Assembly (NCBI GenBank): GCA_001189095.1
Contig: LFCK01000002.1
Location: 131,650-195,649 of the forward strand
Length of the DNA: 64,000 nt
Source of the DNA: Parcubacteria bacterium C7867-001
GTDB taxonomy: Bacteria > Patescibacteriota > Minisyncoccia > Phycocordibacterales > Phycocordibacteraceae
Direction: 5' to 3'
The stretch's first letter is position 1, and every line of letters starts with the position of its first letter. Below are positions 1 through 33,858 of the stretch, piece after piece. Position numbers and translations under genes: made by a program. Below the pieces are notes generated by a model, which was given only the letters and a program-made list of their open reading frames with translations, was not told the DNA's origin and ran no database searches.

Positions 1-39
1 ACCAGCGTCGAAGAGGTACTTCGCGCCGTTTCTGAATAA
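1..39 (+). CDS. 3' end of a truncated upstream gene (translation ...TSVEEVLRAVSE, stop TAA 37-39)
   Basis: Open frame runs off the window start; identity unknown. Confidence 0.2.
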   Translation, partial: TSVEEVLRAVSE

Positions 40-110
40 TTCCTACCGCATCCAGTGCGAACTGTGCTATAACGCGCCGAGACAGTTTCTAGAGAAAGGG
101 GAGTGTTTCC

Positions 111-197
111 ATGGAAGATTTATATTGGTGGGCTGGGATCATCGGCGGCAGCCTGCTGTTGTTCTGGCTCACCCACCGGAACATCAAACCCAAGTAA
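111..197 (+). CDS. 28-aa hydrophobic peptide (MEDLYWWAGIIGGSLLLFWLTHRNIKPK)
   Basis: SD GAAAGGGGAG 6-8 nt upstream of ATG; single predicted TM helix; hairpin terminator immediately downstream. Confidence 0.3.
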   Translation: MEDLYWWAGIIGGSLLLFWLTHRNIKPK

Positions 198-202
198 CAT
201 CG

Positions 203-232
203 AAGCGCGCGGCTCTGCCGCGCGCTTTTTGT
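203..232 (+). terminator. intrinsic terminator hairpin (AAGCGCGCGGC-loop-GCCGCGCGCTTTTT)
   Basis: GC stem followed by T-run. Confidence 0.5.
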
Positions 233-260
233 ATAAAACTACATGCTACGATATTCGTAA

Positions 261-1478
261 ATGAAATTCCGCGTCACGGTACGAAAAGAAGACGGAGTCG
301 AAGAGAAACGTAGTATCGAAGCAGCAAGTCGCTTCGAGGTGTATTCGAATGCAGAAAAGGAGGGCGTCACCGTCGTGCAGGTGGAAGAGGGGAGTGGCGG
401 GTTCACGCTTCCGAAGTGGGCGAACATCAAACTCTCGAGCGGCATCAATCAAGAGCAGAAAATAACGTTTACGAAGAATCTTTCGGCCATGCTCAAGGCG
501 GGCCTCACGCTTTCGCGCGCACTTTCGGTCATCGAGCGCCAGTCAGCCAATAAGTTTCTCAAGGAGGTCGTGGTCGACCTCGAGTCAGAAGTGAAGAAAG
601 GAACCGCGTTCAACGAGGCGCTCGCAAAGCACAGCAGCATTTTCTCGAAGCTTTTCATTGCGATGACGAGAGCGGGCGAGGAATCAGGAACGCTTGCGGA
701 CGCGCTCGGTGTTGTCGCTCGCCAGATGGATCGCTCCTATACGCTTCAGAAGAAAATCAAAGGCGCGATGATCTACCCGACCATTATTATGGTAGCGGTC
801 ATCGTAATCGGCGTGCTGATGCTTATCTACGTGGTCCCGACCCTTTCAGCGACCTTCGTCTCGTTGCGTGTTGAGCTCCCGTCGTCGACAAAGGCGGTTA
901 TCGCAGCTTCAGACTTCATGGCGAGCCACGTCATCCTCACATTCGGTATTCTTGGCGCTTTCCTCGCGGGGATGTTCTTCCTTCTGCGCTCAAAGCCAGG
1001 AAGCGCAGCGCTTCTCTATGTTTCGCTCCACGTTCCGGTTATTGGCGATCTTGTTCGTGAGACCATGAGTGCACGCGCTGCTCGCGCGCTTTCCTCCCTC
1101 CTTTCCTCTGGTGTTGAAATGCTCTCCGCAATCGCTATCGCAGAAGAGGTGGTTGGCGACAATATATTCGGAAAAGTCGTCCATGAAGCACAGGACAAAG
1201 TGCGCAAAGGCGAAGCGCTCTCCACCGTCTTTGCTGCGCACCCGAAACTTTATCCGGTGCTTGTGGGAGACATGATCGCCGTTGGGGAAGAGACGGGCAA
1301 CGTTTCCTCAATGCTCGGACAAGTCGCTGAATATTACGAAACCGATGTCGAAGACCGCACGAAGGATCTCTCCACCATCATCGAGCCGCTTTTGATGCTC
1401 TTCATCGGTTCGGTTGTCGGTCTCTTTGCTATTTCGATGATCTCTCCTATTTACTCCCTTTCCTCGAGCATCAACTAG
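261..1478 (+). CDS. pilC: type IV pilus assembly / type II secretion platform protein PilC (GspF family)
   Basis: 405 aa with two GspF-like repeats and three TM segments; typical PilC/GspF sequence features. Confidence 0.9.
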   Translation: MKFRVTVRKEDGVEEKRSIEAASRFEVYSNAEKEGVTVVQVEEGSGGFTLPKWANIKLSSGINQEQKITFTKNLSAMLKAGLTLSRALSVIERQSANKFLKEVVVDLESEVKKGTAFNEALAKHSSIFSKLFIAMTRAGEESGTLADALGVVARQMDRSYTLQKKIKGAMIYPTIIMVAVIVIGVLMLIYVVPTLSATFVSLRVELPSSTKAVIAASDFMASHVILTFGILGAFLAGMFFLLRSKPGSAALLYVSLHVPVIGDLVRETMSARAARALSSLLSSGVEMLSAIAIAEEVVGDNIFGKVVHEAQDKVRKGEALSTVFAAHPKLYPVLVGDMIAVGEETGNVSSMLGQVAEYYETDVEDRTKDLSTIIEPLLMLFIGSVVGLFAISMISPIYSLSSSIN

Positions 1479-1635
1479 AAATCGCGGTCTGCTTCGTTGT
1501 GGAGCCACCCGATTTCTTCCGTCGTATTCAGAATACGCCTACAGAAATCTCAGCTCCACGCCTCGCATCTCATCGATTTCTAGTTGATGCGATTGGGCCG
1601 TACAGGCTGATTCGACAAACGTACAATGCGTTATC

Positions 1636-3105
1636 ATGGAAGCAATGCGTACTATGCGCGGTATGTCCTTTATTGACGCGATCGTCGGTTCGGCGCTCGT
1701 GCTTATCGTGTTCATGACGCTCTTCGGACTCATACGCGCGAGCATTCTCATCACGGGCACCGCAAAAGCAAAGGCGGGTGCGGCTGCGGTCGCAAACGCG
1801 CAGATGGAATACATCCGTTCACTCGACTACGACTCAATCGGCACTGTCGGCGGCATCCCGTCGGGTCTCATCGCACAAAACTCCACGACAACTTTGAACG
1901 GTATTTCATACGGTGTGCGCACCTTCATCCAGTACGAGGACGACCCAGCTGACGGAAGCGGCGGCTCGGACTCAAACGGCATCACTACTGACTATAAGGA
2001 TATAAAGGTAACGGTGTATTACTCCGTCCAGAACACAACGCGCACAGAAAATCTCGTGAGCGTCGTCGCTCCGAAAAGCATCGAGACCACCACCAATGGT
2101 GGAACGCTCGCAATAAACGTCGTGGATGCGAGCGGTGCGGCAGTGCCGGGCGCGGCCGTGCGTATTACGAACTCAAGCATCTCGCCTACGGTCGACCTCA
2201 CCACCTACGCGGACTCAAGCGGGGTAGTGTACTTGGGTGGTGCGGCAACCTCGACTGAGTATCAAATTTCTGTAACATCGAATGGTTATTCGACCGCTCA
2301 GACATACGCACGCGATGCGACGAATCAGAACCCAACGCCGGGGTATCTCACGGTCGTGAAGAACGTAACGACCACAAGCACCTTCGCTATCGACCGGCTC
2401 GCAACACTCACTATTCGCACCTTCGCTCCCGCGGCGTCTGCTTCTTTCACCGACACGTTCGCAAACTCTTCGAAACTCACTACACTTTCAAGTACGACAG
2501 CTTCGGGCGGCGTGCTCACCCTCACCGGCTCAATCGGTTCGTATCCTTCTAGTGGTTATGCGCTCTCGACGACGACCTCTCCTGCAAGTCTCGAACGTTG
2601 GACCAGTGTTACCGCAACTATCAATACGCCAACCGGAACGGAGGTGCTTGTGCACGTGACAGATGCGGCAGGTGCACTCATTCCCGACGCTGCGCTCCCG
2701 GGGAATGCTGCCGGTTTTTCAACATTTCCGATTGATCTGACCGCTCTTGCAACAACGTCATACGCATCACTCAGACTTTCCGCGGACCTTTCGTCGAGTG
2801 ATCCTGATGCGGCGCCTGAGATTGATAGCTGGTCGCTTACGTATGATGCGGGTCCGCTTCCTATTCCGGATGTTTCCTTCACGCTTACCGGCGCAAAGAC
2901 GGTGGGCACGACCGGTGGAGGCGCCCCCATTTTTAAGACAACGGTCTCGACTACCACGGACTCGTCCGGCACGCGCACTATGTCGCTGGAATGGGATCTC
3001 TACAACATTACGCTTCCGAGCTACACCGTTGACTCCTCGAATCCCGCTGATCCCTATCAGCTTCTGCCGAACGATACGCTCGACGTTTCGCTCACCATCC
3101 ACTAA
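1636..3105 (+). CDS. large prepilin-like protein: pilin-like N-terminus (G-MSFIDAIVG...hydrophobic helix) plus a ~450-aa Thr/Ser-rich domain; start may be the 1657 Met
   Basis: N-terminal class-III-like signal/TM helix with acidic residue at +5 (D); T/S-rich low-complexity C-terminal region; adjacent to pilC. Confidence 0.6.
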   Translation: MEAMRTMRGMSFIDAIVGSALVLIVFMTLFGLIRASILITGTAKAKAGAAAVANAQMEYIRSLDYDSIGTVGGIPSGLIAQNSTTTLNGISYGVRTFIQYEDDPADGSGGSDSNGITTDYKDIKVTVYYSVQNTTRTENLVSVVAPKSIETTTNGGTLAINVVDASGAAVPGAAVRITNSSISPTVDLTTYADSSGVVYLGGAATSTEYQISVTSNGYSTAQTYARDATNQNPTPGYLTVVKNVTTTSTFAIDRLATLTIRTFAPAASASFTDTFANSSKLTTLSSTTASGGVLTLTGSIGSYPSSGYALSTTTSPASLERWTSVTATINTPTGTEVLVHVTDAAGALIPDAALPGNAAGFSTFPIDLTALATTSYASLRLSADLSSSDPDAAPEIDSWSLTYDAGPLPIPDVSFTLTGAKTVGTTGGGAPIFKTTVSTTTDSSGTRTMSLEWDLYNITLPSYTVDSSNPADPYQLLPNDTLDVSLTIH

Positions 3106-3107
3106 GT

Positions 3108-3698
3108 ATGAAAACCCTTCACGGATTCTCGCTCCCTGAAACGCTCGTTGTCGTCGCGCTTGTTGCAACGGCAGGTCTCGCGCTTAACGGAGCGCTCGCC
3201 TCGTTCTATCAAAAGAATGCCTATATTTTTGAATCCGCGTCCGCGGTCGATATTGCGCAGCGTGGTCTTTCAGAATCGGTGACTGCGTTGCGCGAAGCGT
3301 CGTATGGTGCTGATGGTTCGTATCCGGTTGAATCAATCGCGACGTCGAGCGTTACGTTTTATGCGGACGTCGATGGTAATGGGGCAGTTGAAAGAGTGAA
3401 GCTTCGTCTTCAATCGGGAACGCTCTATCGCGTCCGCACGGTCGCGGCAGGAAGCCCGCCTTCATATTCCGGACAAACACCATCGACCACGACCTTGGCG
3501 ACAAATGTGAGCAATGCGACCTCAACGCCGATATTCCGTTACTATGATGTTGATGGGAGCGAGATTACATCGACCACGAGTCCTCAGAATGTGCGCTCGG
3601 TTTCAGTGCGACTCGATATCGACCTCAACCCGCGCCGCGCGCCGACGATCTCGACCATGTCCGGAGCAGCAACCCTTAGAAACCTACGAGACCAATGA
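3108..3698 (+). CDS. prepilin-type pseudopilin (canonical G|FSLPE N-terminus)
   Basis: MKTLHG-FSLPETLVVVALVATAG matches the prepilin peptidase cleavage/methylation motif with E+5; 1-nt gap to upstream gene. Confidence 0.8.
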   Translation: MKTLHGFSLPETLVVVALVATAGLALNGALASFYQKNAYIFESASAVDIAQRGLSESVTALREASYGADGSYPVESIATSSVTFYADVDGNGAVERVKLRLQSGTLYRVRTVAAGSPPSYSGQTPSTTTLATNVSNATSTPIFRYYDVDGSEITSTTSPQNVRSVSVRLDIDLNPRRAPTISTMSGAATLRNLRDQ

Positions 3699-5149
3699 AC
3701 CGAACTTCTCCTAAACCGCTTCGCGGCTACCTCATGCTTATCGCCATCGTGTTCGGTGCGATTTTTCTTGGTGCCCTTGGCGCCCTCGTCTCCTTCGTTC
3801 TTACGGAGAATCGCGCACGCAACGCAAACGATGTGCAGGCACGCGCGTTCGCTATCGCAGAAGCAGGTCTTGAATACTATCGCTGGCACTTGGCCCACTA
3901 TCCAAGCGATCTTCAGAATGGGACGGGAGCAGCCGGACCGTATTCGATGACGTATAACGATCCCGAAGGGGGAGCGCTCGGCACCATCGAACTCACTATT
4001 GGCGGTAATACGTCCTGCAACCAGATAACGTCGGTCGACATCACGTCGAAGGGAACAACCGCCGGCTCTCCGGCGTACACCAAGACTATTTTCGCGCGCT
4101 ACGCGCGCCCGTCGGTCGCGGAGTACTCCTATATATTGAATGACTCCGTCTGGGCTGGTTCCGATCGTGTCATCTTGGGTCCCTATCACAGCAATGGCGG
4201 CATACGCATGGACGGTACCGCGAACTCACCGGTAACCAGCTCGCTCTCAACGTGGAGTTGCACGTCGTCCTTCGGTTGCTCGCCAACCCAGACGAAAAAT
4301 GGCGTTTGGGGTGCAGGAACGAATCAAAATCTTTGGAGCTACCCAACTCCACAGGTCGACTTCGCAGGTATCTCGGCCGATTTCGGTACGCTAAAAACAA
4401 CGGCACAAGCGAGCGGTGTGTACTATCCGCGCTATTCAACCGGAACGGCGACGACGAGCTCATCCTATTGGAACGGCTATCACCTCACTTTTAATACGAA
4501 TGGCACGGTTACGGTAAAGCGAGTTTCGGCAACAACACAGCTCCAAGTTTCACCGGTTAATTCCGCGGAATGGACGACCGACCGCGCGCTGCTTGCAACC
4601 GAGGCTGCCTACGAGACGAAAACTATTCCCTCTACCTGCGGACTCATCTTCGTCGAAGATAACGTCTGGATCGACGGCACGGTTCCGAGCAAAATAACGC
4701 TTGTTGCAGCGAACGTGGTTTCTGGCGGGACTATTAGACCGAACATTTATCTACGCGACAATCTCCAGTACTCGGTAACGACCGGCGCAGCGGGACTCAC
4801 TGCAATCGCAGCGAACGATGTGCTTATTGCACCGAATGCACCGACGAACATGACGCTCAATGGCGTGTTCATAGCGCAGAATGGTGCATTTGGTCGCAAC
4901 CTCTACCTCAACAGCTCTCGTTCGGATTGCCATTCGACCTACGAACCAAAAGGAACACTTACGATTCTCGGTACAACTGTTTCAAATAAGCGAACGGGCA
5001 CGAAGTGGATGAATGGCTGCGGGTCTGGAGACGATGCTGGATTCCAGAATCGTGTGGACTCCTATGACCGGAACCTTTCGACCAATCCGCCGCCATTCAC
5101 TCCGTCAGTCTCAACCGATTACGAATTCGTCGACTGGCGCGAGCAATAG
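3695..5149 (+). CDS. large PilX/PilY-like minor pilin or pilus tip protein (N-terminal hydrophobic anchor, 484 aa, T/S/G/N-rich)
   Basis: Overlaps the upstream pilin gene stop by 4 nt; N-terminal TM helix but no E+5; composition like secreted adhesins. Confidence 0.5.
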   Translation: MNRTSPKPLRGYLMLIAIVFGAIFLGALGALVSFVLTENRARNANDVQARAFAIAEAGLEYYRWHLAHYPSDLQNGTGAAGPYSMTYNDPEGGALGTIELTIGGNTSCNQITSVDITSKGTTAGSPAYTKTIFARYARPSVAEYSYILNDSVWAGSDRVILGPYHSNGGIRMDGTANSPVTSSLSTWSCTSSFGCSPTQTKNGVWGAGTNQNLWSYPTPQVDFAGISADFGTLKTTAQASGVYYPRYSTGTATTSSSYWNGYHLTFNTNGTVTVKRVSATTQLQVSPVNSAEWTTDRALLATEAAYETKTIPSTCGLIFVEDNVWIDGTVPSKITLVAANVVSGGTIRPNIYLRDNLQYSVTTGAAGLTAIAANDVLIAPNAPTNMTLNGVFIAQNGAFGRNLYLNSSRSDCHSTYEPKGTLTILGTTVSNKRTGTKWMNGCGSGDDAGFQNRVDSYDRNLSTNPPPFTPSVSTDYEFVDWREQ

Positions 5150-5150
5150 A

Positions 5151-5180
5151 AAAAGCCCCCGCGTATGCGGGGGCTTTGCT
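5151..5180. terminator. bidirectional intrinsic terminator (AGCCCCCGCGTATGCGGGGGCT)
   Basis: Perfect GC hairpin flanked by an A-run on one side and a T-rich tract on the other, between convergent genes. Confidence 0.6.
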
Positions 5181-5182
5181 CA

Positions 5183-5536
5183 CTACGCCAAACGCTTGAT
5201 GCGCGTCGGGTCGCCGAAGCGATACTCGAGCGCGATGCGTACGTCATGCCCCCACTCGCGACGCATAGAGGGATCACGCGCAAGTGTTGCGGCGACCTCC
5301 ATCGCCCGTTCAGGTCGCCTGAACCACTTCGCCGAAAGTCTATGCTCTCGGTAGAGAAGTTCGTCCGGAATGTGAATTATCCGCTGGTCGTGGGGTCGGA
5401 CGATAATGGCGCAGGGCGCCAAGGCCTTGCCTTCAAACGACAGACCCTGCATTCGTTTGTGCACAGGGATGACGAACAGGTCGGTGACGCATTCCTTAGG
5501 GTACGTGATGAGGAAAAGAGCTCGGGATTGAGCCAT
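5183..5536 (-). CDS. hypothetical protein (117 aa)
   Basis: Strong SD AAGGAG 7 nt upstream of ATG; no recognisable family. Confidence 0.5.
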   Translation of the reverse strand: MAQSRALFLITYPKECVTDLFVIPVHKRMQGLSFEGKALAPCAIIVRPHDQRIIHIPDELLYREHRLSAKWFRRPERAMEVAATLARDPSMRREWGHDVRIALEYRFGDPTRIKRLA

Positions 5537-8362: not shown

Positions 8363-10081
8363 ATGGTCGCACTCCACAAACCCATAGATGCAGATGTGCG
8401 GGAAAGATTGAGCGGATACGACGACCTCACGGCTTCTTTGCTTGTGCGGCGTGGCGTGGAAACGGCGGCAGACGCCGCTGCGTTCCTCAGTCCTTCCTAT
8501 GATGAGCATATCCATGATCCGATGCTTATAAAAAATATGCCGAAAGCCGCTGCGCGCCTCGCTGCGGCCATAACGAGTGGAGAGCGTATTGGCGTCTGGA
8601 GTGACTACGATTGCGACGGTATCCCCGGCGGCGTGGTACTACACGATTTTCTCAAGAAAGCGGGCGCGAACTTTACGAATTACATTCCACATCGCCACGA
8701 AGAGGGTTACGGGGTGAATGAAATGGGAATCGATAAACTTGCGAAGGATGGCGTAAAACTTTTAATCACCGTCGATTCCGGCATCGTCGATAACGACGCA
8801 GTCGCGCACGCTAACGCGCTCGGCATGGAAGTTATCATTACTGACCATCACTTACCGAGCGAGGAATTGCCGCCAGCGTTTGCTGTCATCGATCCGAAGC
8901 AGGAAGGGGAAACCGCTCCGTTCCGCGACTACTGCGGTGCTGGGCTCGCGTGGAAACTAGTTTGCGCGACACTCGCACATGGATTCAAAGGGCGCGAAGC
9001 GATTCCGGAAGGGTGGGAGAAGTGGTTACTTGATATGGCAGGACTCGCAACCATCGCGGACATGGTTCCGCTCACCGGAGAGAATCGTGTCATCGCGAAA
9101 TACGGACTCCTTGTGATGCGGAAGTCGCCGCGCATTGGTCTACAAAAACTTCTGAAAATTGCACGAGTGAATCAGCGTTTCGTTTCGGAAGACGACGTTG
9201 GTTTCATGGTGGCTCCTCGCGTGAATGCCGCAAGTCGCATGGGAGATCCGCGCGACGCCTTCACTCTCCTTACAACGAGCGACGAGTCGGAGGCAGATCG
9301 GCTCGCAAAAGATTTGGAGAAGGCGAATCGCGGCAGGCGAAGCGCCGCCGCGGCCATCACGCGCGCGGTGCATGAACGACTCCACAAGCGTGAAAGCATT
9401 CCAAGCGTGATTGCGCTCGGTGACCCCGACTGGCGTCCGGGACTATTGGGGCTTGTTGCAAACGGTATCGCAGAAGAATACGAACGTCCGGTTTTTCTCT
9501 GGGGCCGCGAAGCGACAATGAAAGTGAAGGGTTCATGCCGCTCAGGAGGTGGCGCGCATGTTGTGGAGCTCATGCAGGCAGCTGGCGACACGTTTCTGGA
9601 ATTTGGCGGACACGCAAAAAGCGGTGGCTTCTCGCTCGCTGAAGACGCTGTCTTCTCCTTCGAAGAGAATTTGTGTAGAGCGTATGAAACCCTCTCGTTC
9701 GCCGATGACGGAAACAGGTTTGCTTTGGCCGACCAAGAACTCACTCCGGAAGAAGCAACGCCCGAACTTCTGCAGAAAGTAAATCGCCTTGCTCCCTATG
9801 GGATGGGTAATGAGAAGCCCGTGTTTCTCTTTCGCAATGTGAGTCTCGTGAAAGTTGAATGGTTCGGCAAGGCGAATGAGCATCTGAAACTAAAAATCGC
9901 ACGAGGTCTATCATTCGATAATGGGCCGATTGACGCTATCGCGTTCTACGCGAAGCGCGAACTCGGCAAGGTCTGCGAAACGATTGCAGACCGCTCGAGC
10001 GCAACGGTTCTTGGCTCACTTGAGCGCGATCAGTTTTCTCGGGGTGCGCCCATACGTCTCAGGATCGTTTCTATTTCTTAG
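8363..10081 (+). CDS. recJ: single-stranded-DNA-specific exonuclease RecJ
   Basis: DHH motifs (DYDCDGI, ITDHH), DHHA1 region and C-terminal OB-fold region. Confidence 0.9.
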   Translation: MVALHKPIDADVRERLSGYDDLTASLLVRRGVETAADAAAFLSPSYDEHIHDPMLIKNMPKAAARLAAAITSGERIGVWSDYDCDGIPGGVVLHDFLKKAGANFTNYIPHRHEEGYGVNEMGIDKLAKDGVKLLITVDSGIVDNDAVAHANALGMEVIITDHHLPSEELPPAFAVIDPKQEGETAPFRDYCGAGLAWKLVCATLAHGFKGREAIPEGWEKWLLDMAGLATIADMVPLTGENRVIAKYGLLVMRKSPRIGLQKLLKIARVNQRFVSEDDVGFMVAPRVNAASRMGDPRDAFTLLTTSDESEADRLAKDLEKANRGRRSAAAAITRAVHERLHKRESIPSVIALGDPDWRPGLLGLVANGIAEEYERPVFLWGREATMKVKGSCRSGGGAHVVELMQAAGDTFLEFGGHAKSGGFSLAEDAVFSFEENLCRAYETLSFADDGNRFALADQELTPEEATPELLQKVNRLAPYGMGNEKPVFLFRNVSLVKVEWFGKANEHLKLKIARGLSFDNGPIDAIAFYAKRELGKVCETIADRSSATVLGSLERDQFSRGAPIRLRIVSIS

Positions 10082-10099
10082 ATTCGTTATACTTCTCGT

Positions 10100-10516
10100 A
10101 TGCATTTCACTATTTTTGCGGACGGGGGCTCGCGTGGGAATCCGGGGCCTGCAGGCTCAGGCGCTATTGTGCGGAACGGTGCAGGGGATGCGGTACTTAC
10201 TGTTTCTCACTATATAGGTACAACAACTAACAATGTCGCCGAATACAAGGCGGTTATTTTTGCACTCGTGGGACTCGCAGAATATCTCGGCGCAGATGCA
10301 TCGAGTGCGCAGGTCGAAGTGTTCATGGATAGCAAGCTCGTCGTTGAGCAGATGAGCGGCAACTGGAAGATAAAGCATCCGAATATGAAACCACTCGCCG
10401 CGGAGGCGATGCGTGCGATGCGGGAATTCGCTTCGGTTACGTTCGCGCACGTTCCGCGCGAGAAAAATAAAGATGCGGACGCTCTCGCGAACGAGGCAAT
10501 GGACAGAGGCGCATGA
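10100..10516 (+). CDS. rnhA: ribonuclease HI
   Basis: DGGSRGNPGPAG, TNNVAEY and DSKLVVEQ RNase H motifs. Confidence 0.9.
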   Translation: MHFTIFADGGSRGNPGPAGSGAIVRNGAGDAVLTVSHYIGTTTNNVAEYKAVIFALVGLAEYLGADASSAQVEVFMDSKLVVEQMSGNWKIKHPNMKPLAAEAMRAMREFASVTFAHVPREKNKDADALANEAMDRGA

Positions 10517-11994
10517 GCGGAACGCTTTTCATCGCAAGCATCATTGGAGTAATTGGCGGCATCTTGTGCCGCTTTTTTAGTACGCCGGTTTGGTCGCTTG
10601 CAGCACTGTTCGGTGTCTTCGGTTTCGTATTTATTGTTGCGTATGCTGTTAAGCGTCGCGAGGCGTATGCTCTTCTTGCGTGTGCAACAGTAGTAGCGGC
10701 ACTTATTCTCACGCGTCTTCTTTTCATTCCTTCCGAACTCCCATCTTCGTTTGTGTCGCTCGTCGACACGAAGGTTTCTTTTGAGGGAACCATTGTCAGC
10801 GATCCTGATATTCGCGATTCAAACCAGCATGTCGTTATCGAGGTCGAGAAGGAGGGGGAGGCAACAAAAATTCTTGCATTCGCGCCGCTTTTCCCGAAGC
10901 TTGCATACGGGGAGCGTGTTGAGGTTTCTGGAAAGCTGAAATATCCAGAACCGTTCACAACTGATGGGGGACGAACGTTTGCGTATGACGAGTATCTCGC
11001 GAAAGACGGAATATTCTCTCTCATCTCATATGCAGAAGTTACGGTACTCGAAGAGCCGGAAGGGTTCTTTACGAACGCGAGAGGATTCTTGTATTCGATA
11101 AAGCATGCGTTCGTTGACGCGCTCATGCGCGCACTCCCGCAAGCGCAGGCTGCGCTCGCGTCCGGACTTATTGCAGGAGGGAAGCAAGGGCTTGGCGATG
11201 ATCTGCTTGAAGCGTTTACCATTGCGGGACTTCTGCCAATCATCGTCTTGTCGGGGTACAACGTGATGATTGTTGCGGATTGGATTCGTAAACTCTTCGG
11301 GTTCCTCCCAAAACGATTTTCGATACTTCTCTCCGCGCTCGCGGTTGCTGCGTTCGTGCTCGCGGCGGGCGGCGGGTCGTCCGCGGTGCGTGCGGGGTTC
11401 ATGGCAGGGCTCGCGCTTTTCGCTCGCGTAACGAATCGAACCTACGTTGCACTCCGCGCGCTCGCAGCGGTATTCATCGGCATGCTTTTCCTGAACCCGC
11501 TTCTTTTGCTCAACGACCCCGGATTCCAGTTTTCATTCGTAGCAACGCTCGGTCTCATTCTGGGAACGCCAATCGTCGAGCGGCGTTTGTTGTGGATCAA
11601 AAATGAATTCTTGCGCGAAATAGCAGCGACGACCGTCGCGGCACAAATCGCGGTTTTGCCGCTGCTTCTCTATCAAACAGGCAATCTCTCACTCGTTTCG
11701 CTTCTTGCGAATGTGCTCGTGCTTCCGTTCGTTCCGCTCACGATGCTGCTTTCGTTCCTTGCGGCACTCGTCAGTTTCGTCGTACCCAACATTGCGCCTC
11801 TTGCGGGTGCGCCCGCCTTTGTTTTCCTTTCCTACATTATTGGCGTGGGAGAGATAAGCGCGTCGCTCCCGTACGCCCACCTCATCGTGTATGCCTTTCC
11901 GTTCTGGATCGTCATCGGCCTCTACCTCCTCATCGCCTATATTTTTCTTGAGCTCTGCGGCGCAAAAGTTGCAGCCGTAAAGGGTACGGGGTAG
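10513..11994 (+). CDS. comEC: ComEC/Rec2-family DNA internalisation channel (short form, no C-terminal metallo-beta-lactamase domain)
   Basis: Polytopic membrane protein with competence-domain signature; ATGA overlap with the rnhA stop. Confidence 0.7.
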   Translation: MSGTLFIASIIGVIGGILCRFFSTPVWSLAALFGVFGFVFIVAYAVKRREAYALLACATVVAALILTRLLFIPSELPSSFVSLVDTKVSFEGTIVSDPDIRDSNQHVVIEVEKEGEATKILAFAPLFPKLAYGERVEVSGKLKYPEPFTTDGGRTFAYDEYLAKDGIFSLISYAEVTVLEEPEGFFTNARGFLYSIKHAFVDALMRALPQAQAALASGLIAGGKQGLGDDLLEAFTIAGLLPIIVLSGYNVMIVADWIRKLFGFLPKRFSILLSALAVAAFVLAAGGGSSAVRAGFMAGLALFARVTNRTYVALRALAAVFIGMLFLNPLLLLNDPGFQFSFVATLGLILGTPIVERRLLWIKNEFLREIAATTVAAQIAVLPLLLYQTGNLSLVSLLANVLVLPFVPLTMLLSFLAALVSFVVPNIAPLAGAPAFVFLSYIIGVGEISASLPYAHLIVYAFPFWIVIGLYLLIAYIFLELCGAKVAAVKGTG

Positions 11995-27547: not shown

Positions 27548-27760
27548 ATGCAGTTCAAAACAGAAGCAGAGCGTGCCGAAGCGCGGGATACGGCGCTTAA
27601 AGCCGAAGCTGCAGCGGCCTACCTTAGGGCATGCGTTGATAATTCGCATATCAATGCAGGGCTTCCCGTCATCGATCGGCAGTTCACGGTGCCGCAAGCT
27701 CTTGAAAAGGGTCTGGCGCTTGCTCGAAAGATGGCGACAGAACAAGACTTCGTCGGATAA
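27548..27760 (+). CDS. small hypothetical protein A (70 aa, helical, Ala/Glu-rich)
   Basis: Long purine-rich SD AAGGAGAAAAGGAGAAAGAG before ATG. Confidence 0.5.
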   Translation: MQFKTEAERAEARDTALKAEAAAAYLRACVDNSHINAGLPVIDRQFTVPQALEKGLALARKMATEQDFVG

Positions 27761-27769
27761 CCAAGTCCA

Positions 27770-27805
27770 AAATCAACCGCCCCAGAGCACTGGGGCGGTT
27801 TTGCA
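27770..27805 (+). terminator. intrinsic terminator (CAACCGCCCCAG-AGCAC-TGGGGCGGTT TTGC)
   Basis: Same stem sequence as the two neighbouring terminators. Confidence 0.55.
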
Positions 27806-27866
27806 TCGTTTTCTTTTTGTCTCGCAGATGCTTTACTTCTTCGCAGACTAGGAAAGGAGGTGCGCT

Positions 27867-28166
27867 ATGGCACTTACGGTCGATGAATTCATGGAAGTCC
27901 TGCGAATCGAGAAAAAGCTCGAAAATCGCGAGGAACTCACGCCTGAAGAGCAGTCGTTCGCGAAGGAGTATAACTGCACCGGTCCCACGCCTTGCGGTTG
28001 CGGAACCAACTGCGGTCTCTTCCTCGAGCCGCGCGTCGATGGCGAACGTCCTATGCTTAACGGCAAGGAAGTGAACCCCGATTGCTACTGGCGCGAACAC
28101 GACAAGGATGCGCCGAACGTTATCGGTCGCGGACGTCGCGGCGGTCGCGGTGCCTACGGCGACTGA
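27867..28166 (+). CDS. small Cys-containing protein B (99 aa; CTGPTPCGCGTNCG cluster and C-terminal RGRRGGRGAYGD tail)
   Basis: Excellent SD GAAAGGAGGTG before ATG; five Cys; RGG-like basic tail. Confidence 0.5.
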   Translation: MALTVDEFMEVLRIEKKLENREELTPEEQSFAKEYNCTGPTPCGCGTNCGLFLEPRVDGERPMLNGKEVNPDCYWREHDKDAPNVIGRGRRGGRGAYGD

Positions 28167-28167
28167 C

Positions 28168-28210
28168 CTACAACCGCCCCAGCTTTGCTGGGGCGGTTTG
28201 CTTTTGTCCG
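28168..28210 (+). terminator. intrinsic terminator (CAACCGCCCCAGC-TTTG-CTGGGGCGGTTTG CTTTTG)
   Basis: Third copy of the AACCGCCCC/GGGGCGGTT stem. Confidence 0.55.
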
Positions 28211-28251
28211 GTTTCGTGATATAACATAGGTGGAAATGGAGGAAGGCCAAT

Positions 28252-28542
28252 ATGACACTTGGCGAAGTAATCAACGACTTCATCTTGTCACTCGTCGTAA
28301 AGGTCCTTCCGCACGAACGCAAGCGTGTCGAGCGGAAGATAAAGACCTTTAACGAGATGCACATTCAAACCCTGAAGGAGATGGACGAAATCGAGCGACG
28401 CTCGGCGGCTGGCATCGTCAGTCCCGAGCAGGCGCTTGAAGCGAATGTGAGAAAGGAAGAGGAGCTCTGGAACCAAGAAGAGGAAATCCGGAGACTCGCG
28501 TTTTTCCTCGGCATCCCCTTCGAAACAGCGGCGGCGCTCTAA
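28252..28542 (+). CDS. small hypothetical protein C (96 aa, charged and helical)
   Basis: SD GGAGGAAGG before ATG; hairpin (AAGCCGCGGCTCCCTCTGGGATCCGCGGCTT) downstream. Confidence 0.45.
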   Translation: MTLGEVINDFILSLVVKVLPHERKRVERKIKTFNEMHIQTLKEMDEIERRSAAGIVSPEQALEANVRKEEELWNQEEEIRRLAFFLGIPFETAAAL

Positions 28543-31456: not shown

Positions 31457-32116
31457 TTATGATGGCGGATGCTTTTCCTCGTAGAGCTTTACGATCTCGC
31501 GAACGAATTTCCGATCACGCTCCTTGTTTTCGTCAGTGAGTTTCTCGTATGGATCAAGCTGGTCAATGAGATCGGTAAGTCGTGCATCTGCTCGAGCAGC
31601 TTCTTCGTTGGCGAAACCACCTTGCTTCATGCGAATGCTAATTTCTCGCTTCAGGTCCTCCCCGTTACGGAGGAACCACTGTTCGTGTATTGCGTTGGCA
31701 GTTGCATCAATGAATGTCTCGTTGAGCGGCGTTCCATTGCGCGCCGCTCGGTATACGGATTCGATCGCGTAGTCATAGCTTGCGAGCGAGTCTTCCTGTC
31801 GGCTGGGCGGAAGTTCGTCGAACGAGTATGACGCAATGTCGACTGCAGGAACCGCTTCATCTCCGAAATCAGGATCTTTTCCTACGCGCTCCGGATGTTT
31901 CTTCATCCACATCCCGTCCTGCTCTGCGTGCAGCGGCTTGAAACGAGATTTGATAGTTTCGGTCCCGTCGGGGTTCTGTATGCGCCGACCCTCTCGGTAT
32001 TTCTCATGGTTCGCGCTCGCTTGAGTGCGGAAACCGGCAATCATCTCCTTTTCCTCAATAGACAGAGGGCTCACCTCCTTTTTTTTGCTGCCTCCCATGA
32101 ATCGTTCGAAAAACAT
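31457..32116 (-). CDS. hypothetical protein (219 aa, charged, no TM)
   Basis: Long ORF; last gene of a three-gene minus-strand insert within the S10 cluster. Confidence 0.5.
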   Translation of the reverse strand: MFFERFMGGSKKKEVSPLSIEEKEMIAGFRTQASANHEKYREGRRIQNPDGTETIKSRFKPLHAEQDGMWMKKHPERVGKDPDFGDEAVPAVDIASYSFDELPPSRQEDSLASYDYAIESVYRAARNGTPLNETFIDATANAIHEQWFLRNGEDLKREISIRMKQGGFANEEAARADARLTDLIDQLDPYEKLTDENKERDRKFVREIVKLYEEKHPPS

Positions 32117-32163
32117 ACTAGTGCTGTAACTGATAATGCTCTAACTATAAACGGAAGCTGCCA

Positions 32164-32994
32164 CTACTGGTACTTAGTTTTAAGAATTGCCTTGAGGTCG
32201 GAGAGGGGAATGCGAAGGGTTTGCGGACCGGCGGCGTACGCAGCAACTTGATACGGCGGGAAGAGAATAACGAGTGTTTTTCCATCGAGATAGAAACTTT
32301 GGAAATTGTCGCCGTCTGCGGAAGCTCCGTCATTGATGGCCTGCATGTCGACCTGTGAGATCGAGACACCTTCTGCTTTTGCGATGATTGCGGGAAGTTT
32401 TGCTCGAGCGAGCGAGGATATCTTTCCGAGGTAGTCGCTGTTCGGGGTGAAGAGGTCGCCAAACAATACGCCGGCTCCTGTTGCCGAATCGAAGGTAAAG
32501 GTGCGGTAGAACCCGTTACCGTGCGCACCGAGGGTATCTTCATAGATATCGAGCACGTAGGAGATGGTCATTGGTGAAGTGTAGAGTTTGTAGTCGATTG
32601 TGAGCGTGTATTTGCGGCCCTGATCGAGTCCTTGAATCTTGATATCTTCTGCGGTGAGATTTGCGAAATTGCCGTTCTCCTTGAAGCTTTCTATGGTGTT
32701 CTGCTCGAATCCTTTGATTGCGCTTACTGCGCGCTGATCCGCGAGCGCTCCAGCGGTCTTTTTGAGCGGTGTCTCACCAGGGTAGGACGTCGAGATGTCG
32801 TAATATTTTCCGTTCTCTTCGATGGATTTGGGTCCAATCGCAGATACGCTTCCTTCGTCGGTCGAGGTTGCGGTTTCAGACGGACGAGTAAATACGGAAA
32901 GAAGCGGCGACCACGATGGATAGGTGATGTAGAGGCCTTCGCCGACAACGAGGAGGATAAGAACGATAACAAGCGGCGATTTGAGGTGTTCCAT
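32164..32994 (-). CDS. DUF4163/DUF3298 (RsiV/PdaC-like) domain protein with N-terminal TM anchor
   Basis: N-terminal TM helix; C-terminal ...ILFPPYQVAAYAAGPQTLRIPLSDLK matches the DUF3298 signature. Confidence 0.6.
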   Translation of the reverse strand: MEHLKSPLVIVLILLVVGEGLYITYPSWSPLLSVFTRPSETATSTDEGSVSAIGPKSIEENGKYYDISTSYPGETPLKKTAGALADQRAVSAIKGFEQNTIESFKENGNFANLTAEDIKIQGLDQGRKYTLTIDYKLYTSPMTISYVLDIYEDTLGAHGNGFYRTFTFDSATGAGVLFGDLFTPNSDYLGKISSLARAKLPAIIAKAEGVSISQVDMQAINDGASADGDNFQSFYLDGKTLVILFPPYQVAAYAAGPQTLRIPLSDLKAILKTKYQ

Positions 32995-33063
32995 ATCACC
33001 CCATCTTAGCGCACGGAACATGAAGGAAATGCAAAGCCCCGCGCGTAGCGCGGGGCTGTATGG

Positions 33064-33630
33064 TTAGACGCCGAGACGTTTCCTTTGTTTGCGAAGGCCG
33101 ACGAGCCCACGATGCTCTTCGAGCACCTCGCGTTCAGCTCGAGCCTGAAAAATCTGATCGAGCGAGTATTGTCTCGTCGAATACAGGAAGTTCCCACCGA
33201 TGGAGAGTGCCCGCTGCCATTCGGCGTCGAGCATCGCTCCAAAGATTTTAATCTCCGGGTGCTGCTTGTAGGGCTTGTCCTGAGCTGCGAATCCGAGATG
33301 GGACGTATCGGGAATCTTGAAGTGATTCGCGACCGTTCCGTACATAACGTAGTTCGTTCCGGGATTCGCAAGGTCCGGCCTTGATTCGAAGGCGAGCGCA
33401 AGCACGCACTCGTTGTCGTAGCTGTCGTGCGCACGGAATCGGCAGGTGCCGTCCTCCTGTGGCTCGAACATGTTTCGGTGCCAACCGGCAGGAGCGTGCT
33501 CCCGAAGCCATTTGATGCCGCGAGCGACACGGCGCTCGGTAAGGAGCCTGCTCAGTCGATCAGGATCAGTACGCCGGAGCCGAAGATACTCGAGCGATTT
33601 CGCCAAAATTTCCTCTTTTGAGGGTTTCAT
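33064..33630 (-). CDS. hypothetical protein (188 aa)
   Basis: Strong SD TAGGAGGT 6 nt before ATG (start taken at MKPSKEEIL); GC hairpin downstream at 33034..33057. Confidence 0.5.
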   Translation of the reverse strand: MKPSKEEILAKSLEYLRLRRTDPDRLSRLLTERRVARGIKWLREHAPAGWHRNMFEPQEDGTCRFRAHDSYDNECVLALAFESRPDLANPGTNYVMYGTVANHFKIPDTSHLGFAAQDKPYKQHPEIKIFGAMLDAEWQRALSIGGNFLYSTRQYSLDQIFQARAEREVLEEHRGLVGLRKQRKRLGV

Positions 33631-33858
33631 TGAATACCTCCTAAGGTTCAACCTAAGCGAAACCCTAGCATGGGGAGCACCGTTTGACACCCATACGCTT
33701 TTCCTATAGATTGCTCCTATCCGCAAACACGCGGGTTCTGGCCGCTTCTGGCCTTAGGGAGCCTAAACGCTTTCAAAAACCGAGCTTCTGCACCGTATAG
33801 CGGTCGTTAGCTCGGCCGAATTTGTTTAACCCAAAAACCACTTTTACCTACCCAATTC

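Follow-up and report, generated by a model that had tools for sequence, protein, structure and literature searches.

A conserved type IV pilus locus of Parcubacteria bacterium C7867-001 encoding a probable tip complex of three minor pilins, two of them giant and modular

Type IV pili are believed to play a central part in host attachment and in the acquisition of DNA and nucleotides in ultrasmall bacteria belonging to the candidate phyla radiation (CPR), and their tips are barely known outside Saccharibacteria. Here we describe a type IV pilus locus of Parcubacteria bacterium C7867-001 that lies at the start of a 64-kb stretch of contig LFCK01000002.1 (this whole stretch, 64,000 nucleotides long, is called the window below). 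The locus occupies positions 1-5177, and the bacterium has at least one other type IV pilus locus besides it. On the plus strand, it begins with the 3' end of pilB1 (1..39), the gene for an assembly ATPase of 585 amino acids (aa) in full. A terminator-like hairpin in the pilB/pilC interval (202..228), pilC (261..1478), encoding an inner-membrane platform protein of 405 aa, and a spacer of 157 nucleotides (nt; 1479..1635) follow. Then come three open reading frames (ORFs) for minor pilins. ORF2 (1636..3105) encodes a giant modular protein of 489 aa, or 486 aa if translation starts at 1645, in which a GspI/PilV-like head carries three beta-sandwich modules. ORF3 (3108..3698) encodes a canonical prepilin-type protein of 196 aa in the GspJ/PilW position, and ORF4 (3695..5149) a giant capping pilin of 484 aa, in which a GspK/PilX-like head carries a beta-solenoid resembling ice-binding proteins. 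A hairpin terminator (5152..5177) closes the locus.

The original prediction for this stretch had proposed a type IV pilus module extending from pilC to the end of ORF4 (261-5149), and an ORF scan returned exactly these coordinates. PilC is a full-length member of the T2SSF/GspF/PilC proteins. Pfam T2SSF matched two repeats in it (E 3e-57), and over its full length it matched the NCBIfam models for GspF (TIGR02120, E 2e-91) and for PilC of the Thermus type (E 1e-78), in both cases under the equivalog cutoff. The gene ending at position 39 is pilB. The translation of 1-39, TSVEEVLRAVSE followed by a stop, is the C-terminus of a 585-aa protein with MshEN and T2SSE domains found on contigs L001 and L085. 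PilB1 matched Pfam T2SSE with E 5e-120 and TIGR02538 (PilB) with E 6e-151, also under the equivalog cutoff. With PilB immediately upstream and PilC in the window, the type IV pilus assignment is borne out. The flanks of the window were read from a near-identical 280-kb contig (DGYL01000006.1, assembly GCA_002396685.1) over about 18 kb, including 8 kb upstream of pilB. In the gene tables these 8 kb contain RNase Y, ClpP, a pyrophosphatase, NusA and small non-pilin ORFs, and no pil gene other than pilB. The suggestion that the missing pil genes might lie upstream was therefore right for pilB, but the genes for PilM, PilN/O-like proteins, another PilB and a PilT-like ATPase lie instead about 5 kb beyond the 3' end of the window. 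As had been stated, the window itself has no pilB, pilT or pilM-Q gene apart from the 3' end of pilB. Two small ORFs of 116 and 114 aa (L085 5193-5543 and 5667-6011), which are paralogues in tandem some 1-2.5 kb upstream of pilB, share the motifs AEVV and YFA(I/V)RF(D/E)DG and a C-terminal (L/V)G(L/V), and match no family. They were considered as pilins and rejected, having neither a Gly-Phe-x-x-x-Glu motif nor a hydrophobic helix.

The pilin genes are tightly packed, ORF2 and ORF3 being separated by 2 nt (3105/3108) and ORF3 and ORF4 overlapping by 4 nt (3695/3698), but the packing described earlier does not extend to the pilC-ORF2 junction with its 157 nt. That spacer is a probable site of a separate promoter or of regulation, and among relatives the corresponding interval ranges from none, with the genes adjacent, to about 2 kb of inserted genes. 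An RNA element in the spacer was considered and rejected, since the 157 nt matched nothing in Rfam and folding gave only a mildly unusual prediction (z -2.15). The hairpin at 202-228, a GC-rich stem followed by TTTTTGT (U5 in the transcript), has a predicted folding energy of -23.1 kcal/mol (z -4.9), which none of 200 shuffled sequences equalled, and it may separate the pilB and pilC transcripts. Between pilB and pilC there is also a 28-codon ORF (111-197; MEDLYWWAGIIGGSLLLFWLTHRNIKPK) encoding a single hydrophobic helix, with the Shine-Dalgarno-like sequence GAAAGGGGAG upstream. In relatives, the pilB-pilC junction holds nothing, a 75-aa gene, or several genes. The terminator behind ORF4, which had been described as bidirectional, forms an 11-bp stem with 8 of 11 pairs GC and is predicted to be stable on both strands (-23.5 kcal/mol on the plus and -23.9 on the minus strand, z about -5). 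However, it has a full U-tract (TTTTTCTATT) only on the minus strand, the plus strand offering an upstream A-tract and only TTT.

The three ORFs are real genes rather than chance reading frames, since full-length homologues run into the hundreds or thousands for every one of them (787 for ORF2, 228 for ORF3 and more than 2117 for ORF4, the best matches having E values from 1e-116 to 0). Pilin hallmarks were counted in alignments of about 50 homologues per family. Leaders of about 5-12 residues precede hydrophobic helices in all three proteins, and Arg-Gly stands directly before the helix in 49/49 members of the ORF2 family and 44/44 of the ORF4 family; in the ORF3 family the cleavage site is Arg or Lys followed by Gly (38/46) or Ala (8/46). 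Residue +5 of the mature form is Glu in 49/49 sequences of the ORF3 family, Asp in 55/55 of the ORF2 family, and Leu, Val, Thr or Met in the ORF4 family. The family motifs, with the cleavage site marked by an arrow, are R-G↓M/V-S/T-L-I-D for ORF2, R/K-G/A↓F-T-L-x-E for ORF3 and R-G↓Y-L-M-L-L for ORF4. In the window the N-termini read MRG↓MSFID, HG↓FSLPE and LRG↓YLMLI, so that the Asp at +5 of ORF2 and the prepilin site of ORF3 are as originally described. For the class III signal, whose presence had been made the touchstone, Arg-Gly before the helix was found in all three families but the canonical Glu at +5 in ORF3 only. The three proteins would be cleaved by a prepilin peptidase. In AlphaFold2 models computed from the alignments, ORF2 and ORF4 both begin with a helix of 50-60 residues that leads into a four-stranded sheet, which is the pilin fold. 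The models are of usable quality, the predicted local distance difference test score (pLDDT) being 82 for ORF4, with a predicted template modelling score of 0.76, and 81 for ORF2.

The proteins had also been predicted to be giant minor or tip pilins rich in Thr and Ser, with long extensions suggestive of glycosylation. The Ser and Thr richness is real. These residues make up 27.6% of ORF2, 23.5% of ORF3 and 21.3% of ORF4, roughly twice the window median of 11% and the highest values among the window's large ORFs. The pilin fold of the giants likewise stood up, but the extensions are predicted to be folded beta domains (Ig-like, jelly-roll and beta-solenoid) with high pLDDT, not low-complexity linkers. 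The enrichment is spread through these domains, many of them above pLDDT 90, and the longest run of Ser or Thr in any of the three proteins is five residues. The bias fits the 'GAST' preference for cheap amino acids known for pilins, and gives no evidence of glycosylated linkers.

In the AlphaFold model, the head of ORF2 has a GspI/EpsI-like fold. Beyond it lie three beta-sandwich modules, one of which is immunoglobulin (Ig)/transthyretin-like and one like a carbohydrate-binding module. The latter, a jelly roll, is placed tentatively at about residues 245-405 from the domain size and the confidence profile of the model. The comparison extends to the CnaB/Ig domains of Gram-positive pilins and collagen adhesins. 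Pfam, NCBIfam and PDB profiles recognized only CarboxypepD_reg in ORF2, and the pilin head had no specific match. The homologues fall into two length classes, of about 485 and about 570 aa, and the family carries three or four extra beta-sandwich modules. With 489 aa, and 570 aa in many relatives, ORF2 lies well outside the size of GspI/PilV-type pilins (about 120-190 aa), and it is a modular derivative of that type, not a typical member.

ORF3 is the most conventional pilin of the three. It scored 17.4 bits against TIGR02532, above the cutoff of 16.3, and N_methyl, the only Pfam family recognized, was found in 46/49 family members. It is 100% identical to an NCBI protein named 'Type IV pilus pilin' [Parcubacteria bacterium C7867-001]. 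A PDB profile search matched only the N-terminal helix of geopilins and PilA, and weak NCBIfam matches were scattered over ComGE, GspH, ComGD, GspI, ComGF and GspJ. Its length is close to that of Escherichia coli GspJ (196 versus 195 aa), and its gene sits between a GspI-like and a GspK-like gene. Gene position and length therefore fit a GspJ/PilW-type pilin, with the globular fold putative.

ORF4, the last gene of the minor-pilin set, has a GspK-like head and a triangular beta-solenoid like that of ice-binding proteins in its AlphaFold model. The only significant full-length PDB match to this model is ComZ of Thermus (6QVI). In sequence searches no Pfam family, PilX_N and T2SSK included, matched at E<=1, and the sole NCBIfam match was GspG with E 0.15. 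A sequence-level family assignment of the ORF2 and ORF4 heads was accordingly dropped, the Pfam, NCBIfam and PDB profiles being unspecific and the ORF4 matches at chance level. The conserved motif AEAG..YY.W at the end of the ORF4 helix is one that we take to be reminiscent of PilX-type proteins. In the model a terminal strand (residues 477-483) follows a conserved PPPFTP linker and includes an invariant Trp (W481). This is compatible with the last strand returning to the pilin sheet, as would be expected if the solenoid were inserted, in the manner of ComZ, between the last two strands of that sheet. The stretch most conserved in close relatives is residues 146-220 (window 4130-4354), with the motif NDSVWAGxDRVIxGPYHSNGGIRMDG and two invariant cysteines, Cys189 and Cys195. 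In a broader alignment (median identity 34%), only G162 and N167 of this stretch are at least 95% conserved. A catalytic or ligand site here was considered, but an enzyme site finds no support, because Gly, Trp and Pro account for nearly all positions that are conserved across the family, the exceptions being E56 and N167.

The ORF4 family is large and uniform. All homologues are about 460-490 aa long, and an alignment of 55 of them (A1) has a mean column identity of 69%. At 50% clustering the family comprises 1006 clusters, 318 of them at E<=1e-30, and 111 of the best 150 cluster representatives have 430-530 aa, down to 28% identity. It has no Pfam model and is called 'hypothetical' in nearly every source that names it. 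The locus thus defines a large unannotated set of families, all three of which are conserved across Paceibacteria/Parcubacteria.

Gene order was followed in a scan of species-representative genomes, which gave 145 loci, of which the best 80, ranked by similarity to ORF4, were kept. The order pilB-pilC-ORF2-ORF3-ORF4-tpiA-pgk-HIT-recJ-rnhA-comEC-sod was found in nearly all of these approximately 80 related species genomes, the presence of pilB-pilC directly upstream being judged where the flank was long enough. Every locus keeps the three pilin genes together, in one order and downstream of pilB-pilC, with insertions only at the pilB/pilC or pilC/ORF2 junctions. The kept loci carry the names Paceibacterota, Parcubacteria, Kaiserbacteria, Minisyncoccia, Patescibacteria or, in one bulk catalogue of metagenome-assembled genomes, 'Candidatus Saccharibacteria'. 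The last label, carried by many contigs among loci L005-L084, is distrusted as probably a naming artefact, because these contigs show full synteny and 60-76% ORF4 identity with Paceibacteria contigs. The median identity to relatives was 78% for PilB, 66% for PilC, 66% for RecJ, 63% for ORF4 (slightly inflated, as the loci were ranked by ORF4 similarity), 60% for Pgk, 59% for TpiA, 54% for ORF2, 51% for ORF3 and 49% for ComEC. A tip pilin conserved like glycolytic enzymes is unusual, and CPR pilins were found to be very poorly conserved in a study of Saccharibacteria (PMC11623550).

Two further groups of genes may bear on the function of the locus. recJ-rnhA-comEC (8363..11994, plus strand; Pfam DHH/DHHA1/RecJ_OB, RNase_H and DUF4131 plus Competence) lies 3-7 kb downstream of the pilin genes. 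The second type IV pilus locus (L089 1-5790) is on this contig as well, some 5-10 kb past the window's 3' end. It encodes a PilM of 362 aa (TIGR01175, above cutoff), two PilN/O-like membrane proteins of 233 and 191 aa, a 101-aa membrane protein, a second PilB of 595 aa, a CheY-like response regulator and a T2SSE ATPase of PilT size that is truncated where the locus ends. Divergent from pilM there is a ComF-family gene, about 65 kb from the three pilin genes. Only one pilC was seen in the sequence read (the window plus about 18 kb of flank). Motif scans and gene tables of the window revealed no additional motifs of pilins, of the T2SSE Walker type or of A24 peptidases, and the window has no paralogue of the three pilins.

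A close parallel in gene organization is the GspI-GspJ-GspK complex at the pseudopilus tip of type II secretion (PDB 3CI0), with its counterparts among FimU, PilV, PilW and PilX of type IVa pili. The order I-J-K, the abutting or overlapping genes and the lack of Glu5 in the K-type protein are shared, and the ends of E. coli gspI-J-K overlap likewise. The differences are that a fourth, GspH/FimU-like gene is missing here, that the I-type protein has 489 aa and Asp5 as opposed to about 125 aa in GspI, and that in the K-type protein a beta-solenoid takes the place of the alpha-helical insert of GspK. For ORF4, the closest single protein is ComZ of Thermus thermophilus (PDB 6QVI), which also has about 500 aa, a hydrophobic N-terminal helix without Glu5, a GspK-like head and a large triangular beta-solenoid whose nearest relatives are ice-binding proteins. 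Both proteins are encoded in minor-pilin clusters, the Thermus order being pilA1-pilA2-pilA3-comZ-pilA4. ComZ is a DNA-binding tip pilin required for transformation, GspK being the nearest relative of its pilin domain and an ice-binding protein that of its solenoid (PMC6561018). It lacks a canonical pilin motif, and its bulk confines it to the tip (PMC6561018). However, ComZ and ORF4 gave no HMMER match at E<=10, the structural alignments have 12-16% identity, and the TM-score is only about 0.3, because the orientation of the domains differs. Moreover, Thermus has an outer membrane and the PilQ secretin, whereas CPR bacteria have neither, and DNA binding has been demonstrated for ComZ whereas for ORF4 it would follow by analogy only.

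Solenoid-bearing caps are known from another phylum as well. All cyanobacterial PilX proteins have a beta-solenoid build and have been proposed to plug the tip where PilY1 is absent (bioRxiv 10.64898/2026.02.12.705559). Like ORF4, they (PilX-Com and PilX-EPS/HpsA) are without Glu5 and bear a bulky ice-binding-like solenoid. They are capping pilins whose pilin fold is broken by the solenoid, and they strictly co-occur with a PilV-type partner, as at this locus. Cyanobacteria, however, have two such sets, for competence and motility, whereas only one set was seen here. The solenoid-capped PilX/ComZ class would thereby be extended from Deinococcus-Thermus and Cyanobacteria to the CPR, and its spread suggests that the solenoid cap is an old feature in bacteria lacking PilY1. 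Modules grafted on pilin heads also occur in the monoderm-type pilus of Streptococcus sanguinis (PilB with vWA, PilC with a lectin domain, and PilA), the modules here being Ig, jelly-roll and solenoid domains with no sequence relationship to those. The S. sanguinis PilA, PilB and PilC proteins form a tip complex. Within the same superphylum, Saccharibacteria TM7x has PilX1 and PilX2, each of which exceeds the other minor pilins of its locus in size. They have non-canonical signal peptides and accessory domains and are proposed tip proteins, and their Ser/Thr or 'GAST' enrichment and possible glycosylation have been discussed (PMC11623550). PilX1 has a jelly roll and PilX2 a seven-bladed propeller in place of the ORF4 solenoid, and the ORF4 family differs in being highly conserved. 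CPR type IV pili, the large accessory-domain minor pilins of Saccharibacteria, ComZ and solenoid PilX are thus already published, and our literature search found no paper that joins ComZ-like pilins with Patescibacteria or that describes the ORF4 family.

Taken together, the three proteins probably are a core set of minor pilins of the GspI/J/K (PilV/W/X) type that primes the pilus and forms its tip, with two modular subunits and a ComZ-like cap that would be a new member, unrelated in sequence, of the ComZ/solenoid-PilX class. In the proposed mechanism, the PilB1 ATPase and the PilC platform, whose genes precede those of the GspI-GspJ-GspK (PilV-PilW-PilX)-like pilins, would act with a complex that, like its counterpart in known systems, assembles first on the platform, primes polymerization of the major pilin and finishes at the tip of the pilus. 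ORF2 would be the GspI/PilV-type subunit, enlarged by Ig/transthyretin-like, jelly-roll (of the carbohydrate-binding kind) and further beta-sandwich modules, ORF3 the canonical Glu5 pilin in the GspJ/PilW position, and ORF4 the GspK/PilX-type cap bearing the beta-solenoid. Because ORF4 is without Glu5, no subunit could be added above it. The bulky modules would therefore be confined to the tip, where they would plug the filament and form its ligand-binding end. On this basis we infer that the three proteins form a complex and sit at the tip.

Several observations weigh against this assignment. ORF2 has Asp at +5 and not the canonical Glu. In hhalign comparisons of ORF3 with E. coli GspG, GspH, GspI and GspJ only the N-terminal 22-30 residues align, and the comparison with GspK was not significant. 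ORF4 has no sequence-level similarity to ComZ, GspK or Pfam PilX_N, and its residues 146-220, despite their invariance in close relatives, are modelled with pLDDT below 50. Neither a major pilin nor a prepilin peptidase turned up in the window or the approximately 18 kb of flank, an A24 gene being absent from the gene tables of the flanks. Finally, the whole 20-kb block is collinear in the lineage, and for this reason the linkage of the three genes to comEC may reflect an order passed down by descent and not a functional tie.

What the tip would bind is less clear, and here a link to DNA uptake or host attachment, as originally suggested, is plausible on account of the ComZ-like ORF4 and the conserved recJ-rnhA-comEC genes downstream. 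A conserved host-surface glycan is a ligand that we would give somewhat less than an even chance. The capture of DNA, for ComEC-dependent uptake or nucleotide scavenging, is a tentative proposal, and the tip might also bind both ligands. The adhesion side is favored by the Ig- and carbohydrate-binding-module-like modules of ORF2 and by the episymbiotic lifestyle. The DNA side is favored by the ComZ match, by the competence genes on the contig, by the housekeeping-level conservation and by the reported scarcity of ComEA in the CPR, where type IV pili, PilD and ComEC are widespread and ComEA is often absent (PMC6744442). A more specific form of the DNA proposal, which is rather doubtful, makes the ORF4 family the patescibacterial counterpart of ComZ, by analogy to the Thermus protein. 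With ORF2 and ORF3 it would be the DNA receptor at the tip that passes environmental or host DNA to ComEC. If so, ORF4 would take over the part of ComEA, which is missing from most CPR genomes, and would be the nucleotide-scavenging entry point in Paceibacteria, and its housekeeping-level conservation would reflect a universal ligand, not a host-specific surface. DNA binding is disfavored by the net acidic composition of ORF2 (22 Lys plus Arg versus 40 Asp plus Glu) and the approximately neutral one of ORF4. It is also disfavored by the presence of solenoid PilX in both competence and motility pili of cyanobacteria (bioRxiv 10.64898/2026.02.12.705559), and by the retention of competence in the TM7x mutants tested, those of T4P-2 pilins and of pilB2 (PMC11623550).

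The alternative that survives best dispenses with DNA altogether. The complex would be a host-attachment adhesin only, whose ORF2 modules and ORF4 solenoid bind a polymer of the host surface, with no role in DNA uptake, and we regard this as a serious possibility that falls short of being probable. TM7x requires its large minor pilin PilX2 to bind its host efficiently, and the T4P-2 mutants tested, in pilins and pilB2, are normal in competence (PMC11623550); Paceibacteria, for their part, have pilin clusters and attach to particular hosts (PMC9763046). However, tip adhesins recognizing host surfaces that vary tend to evolve rapidly, whereas ORF4 is conserved like Pgk and TpiA over about 80 species. 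In addition, the closest solved structure to ORF4 is that of a DNA-binding competence pilin, and competence genes are on the same contig, with recJ-rnhA-comEC a few kb downstream of the three genes and comF by the second pilus locus. If the tip merely serves as plug or adhesin, the locus represents ordinary pilus biology in a new lineage. The soluble ORF4 and ORF2 modules are concrete, expressible targets for tip-binding tests of DNA versus host glycan.

The presence of the second locus allows another view, which we consider unlikely. PilB1-PilC and the three pilins could form a short competence-type pseudopilus, spanning the envelope like the ComG or type II secretion system (T2SS) machinery and pulling DNA to ComEC, with the long pili made by the second locus. 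There are indeed two PilB paralogues on the contig, of which only the second has pilM/N/O-like genes and a gene for a pilT-like ATPase linked to it, and the first locus is without an adjoining retraction ATPase or major pilin. Its layout of ATPase, platform and pilins recalls comGA-comGB-comGC. Distinct minor-pilin sets prime short competence and long motility pili in cyanobacteria (bioRxiv 10.64898/2026.02.12.705559). However, the scores do not favor ComG proteins. PilC scored 265-307 bits against models of type IVa pili and T2SS but 152 against ComGB, and PilB1 scored 504 bits, compared with 257 against ComGA. Since only one pilC was seen in the sequence read, both loci may serve one machine, and bulky tip modules, with extensions of about 340 aa, are more in keeping with an exposed tip than with a periplasm-like conduit. 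That ORF2 and ORF4 are not pilus subunits at all but type II membrane-anchored surface proteins, by chance next to pilB-pilC, is very improbable: neither has the canonical Glu5 (Asp in ORF2, no acidic residue in ORF4) or a pilin hidden Markov model match above threshold, and the sequence read yielded no prepilin peptidase, but Arg-Gly is invariant just before the helix, the ORF between them is a canonical prepilin, the three genes are fixed to pilB-pilC in about 80 genomes, and the absence of Glu5 is a defining trait of the capping pilins GspK, PilX and ComZ.

The remaining observations concern the surroundings of the locus. A convergent ORF of 117 aa (5183-5536, minus strand; no Pfam match) uses the same hairpin terminator as ORF4. 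A gene of similar size is found at this site in relatives (109 aa in L002 and 117 aa in L085), and one gene caller placed a 163-aa plus-strand ORF there instead. The rest of the window is housekeeping, mostly ribosomal operons, which are interrupted in two places. The genes rpsJ (S10) and rplC (L3) are ordinarily adjacent. Here they are separated by about 1.1 kb (approximately 27548-28542), in which three small ORFs (70, 99 and 96 aa) without a Pfam match were called. The S10 operon is broken a second time between rplB (L2) and rpsS (S19), where genes on the minus strand, opposite to the operon, occupy 31457-33726 and encode proteins of 213 aa, 285 aa (with DUF3298) and 188 aa.

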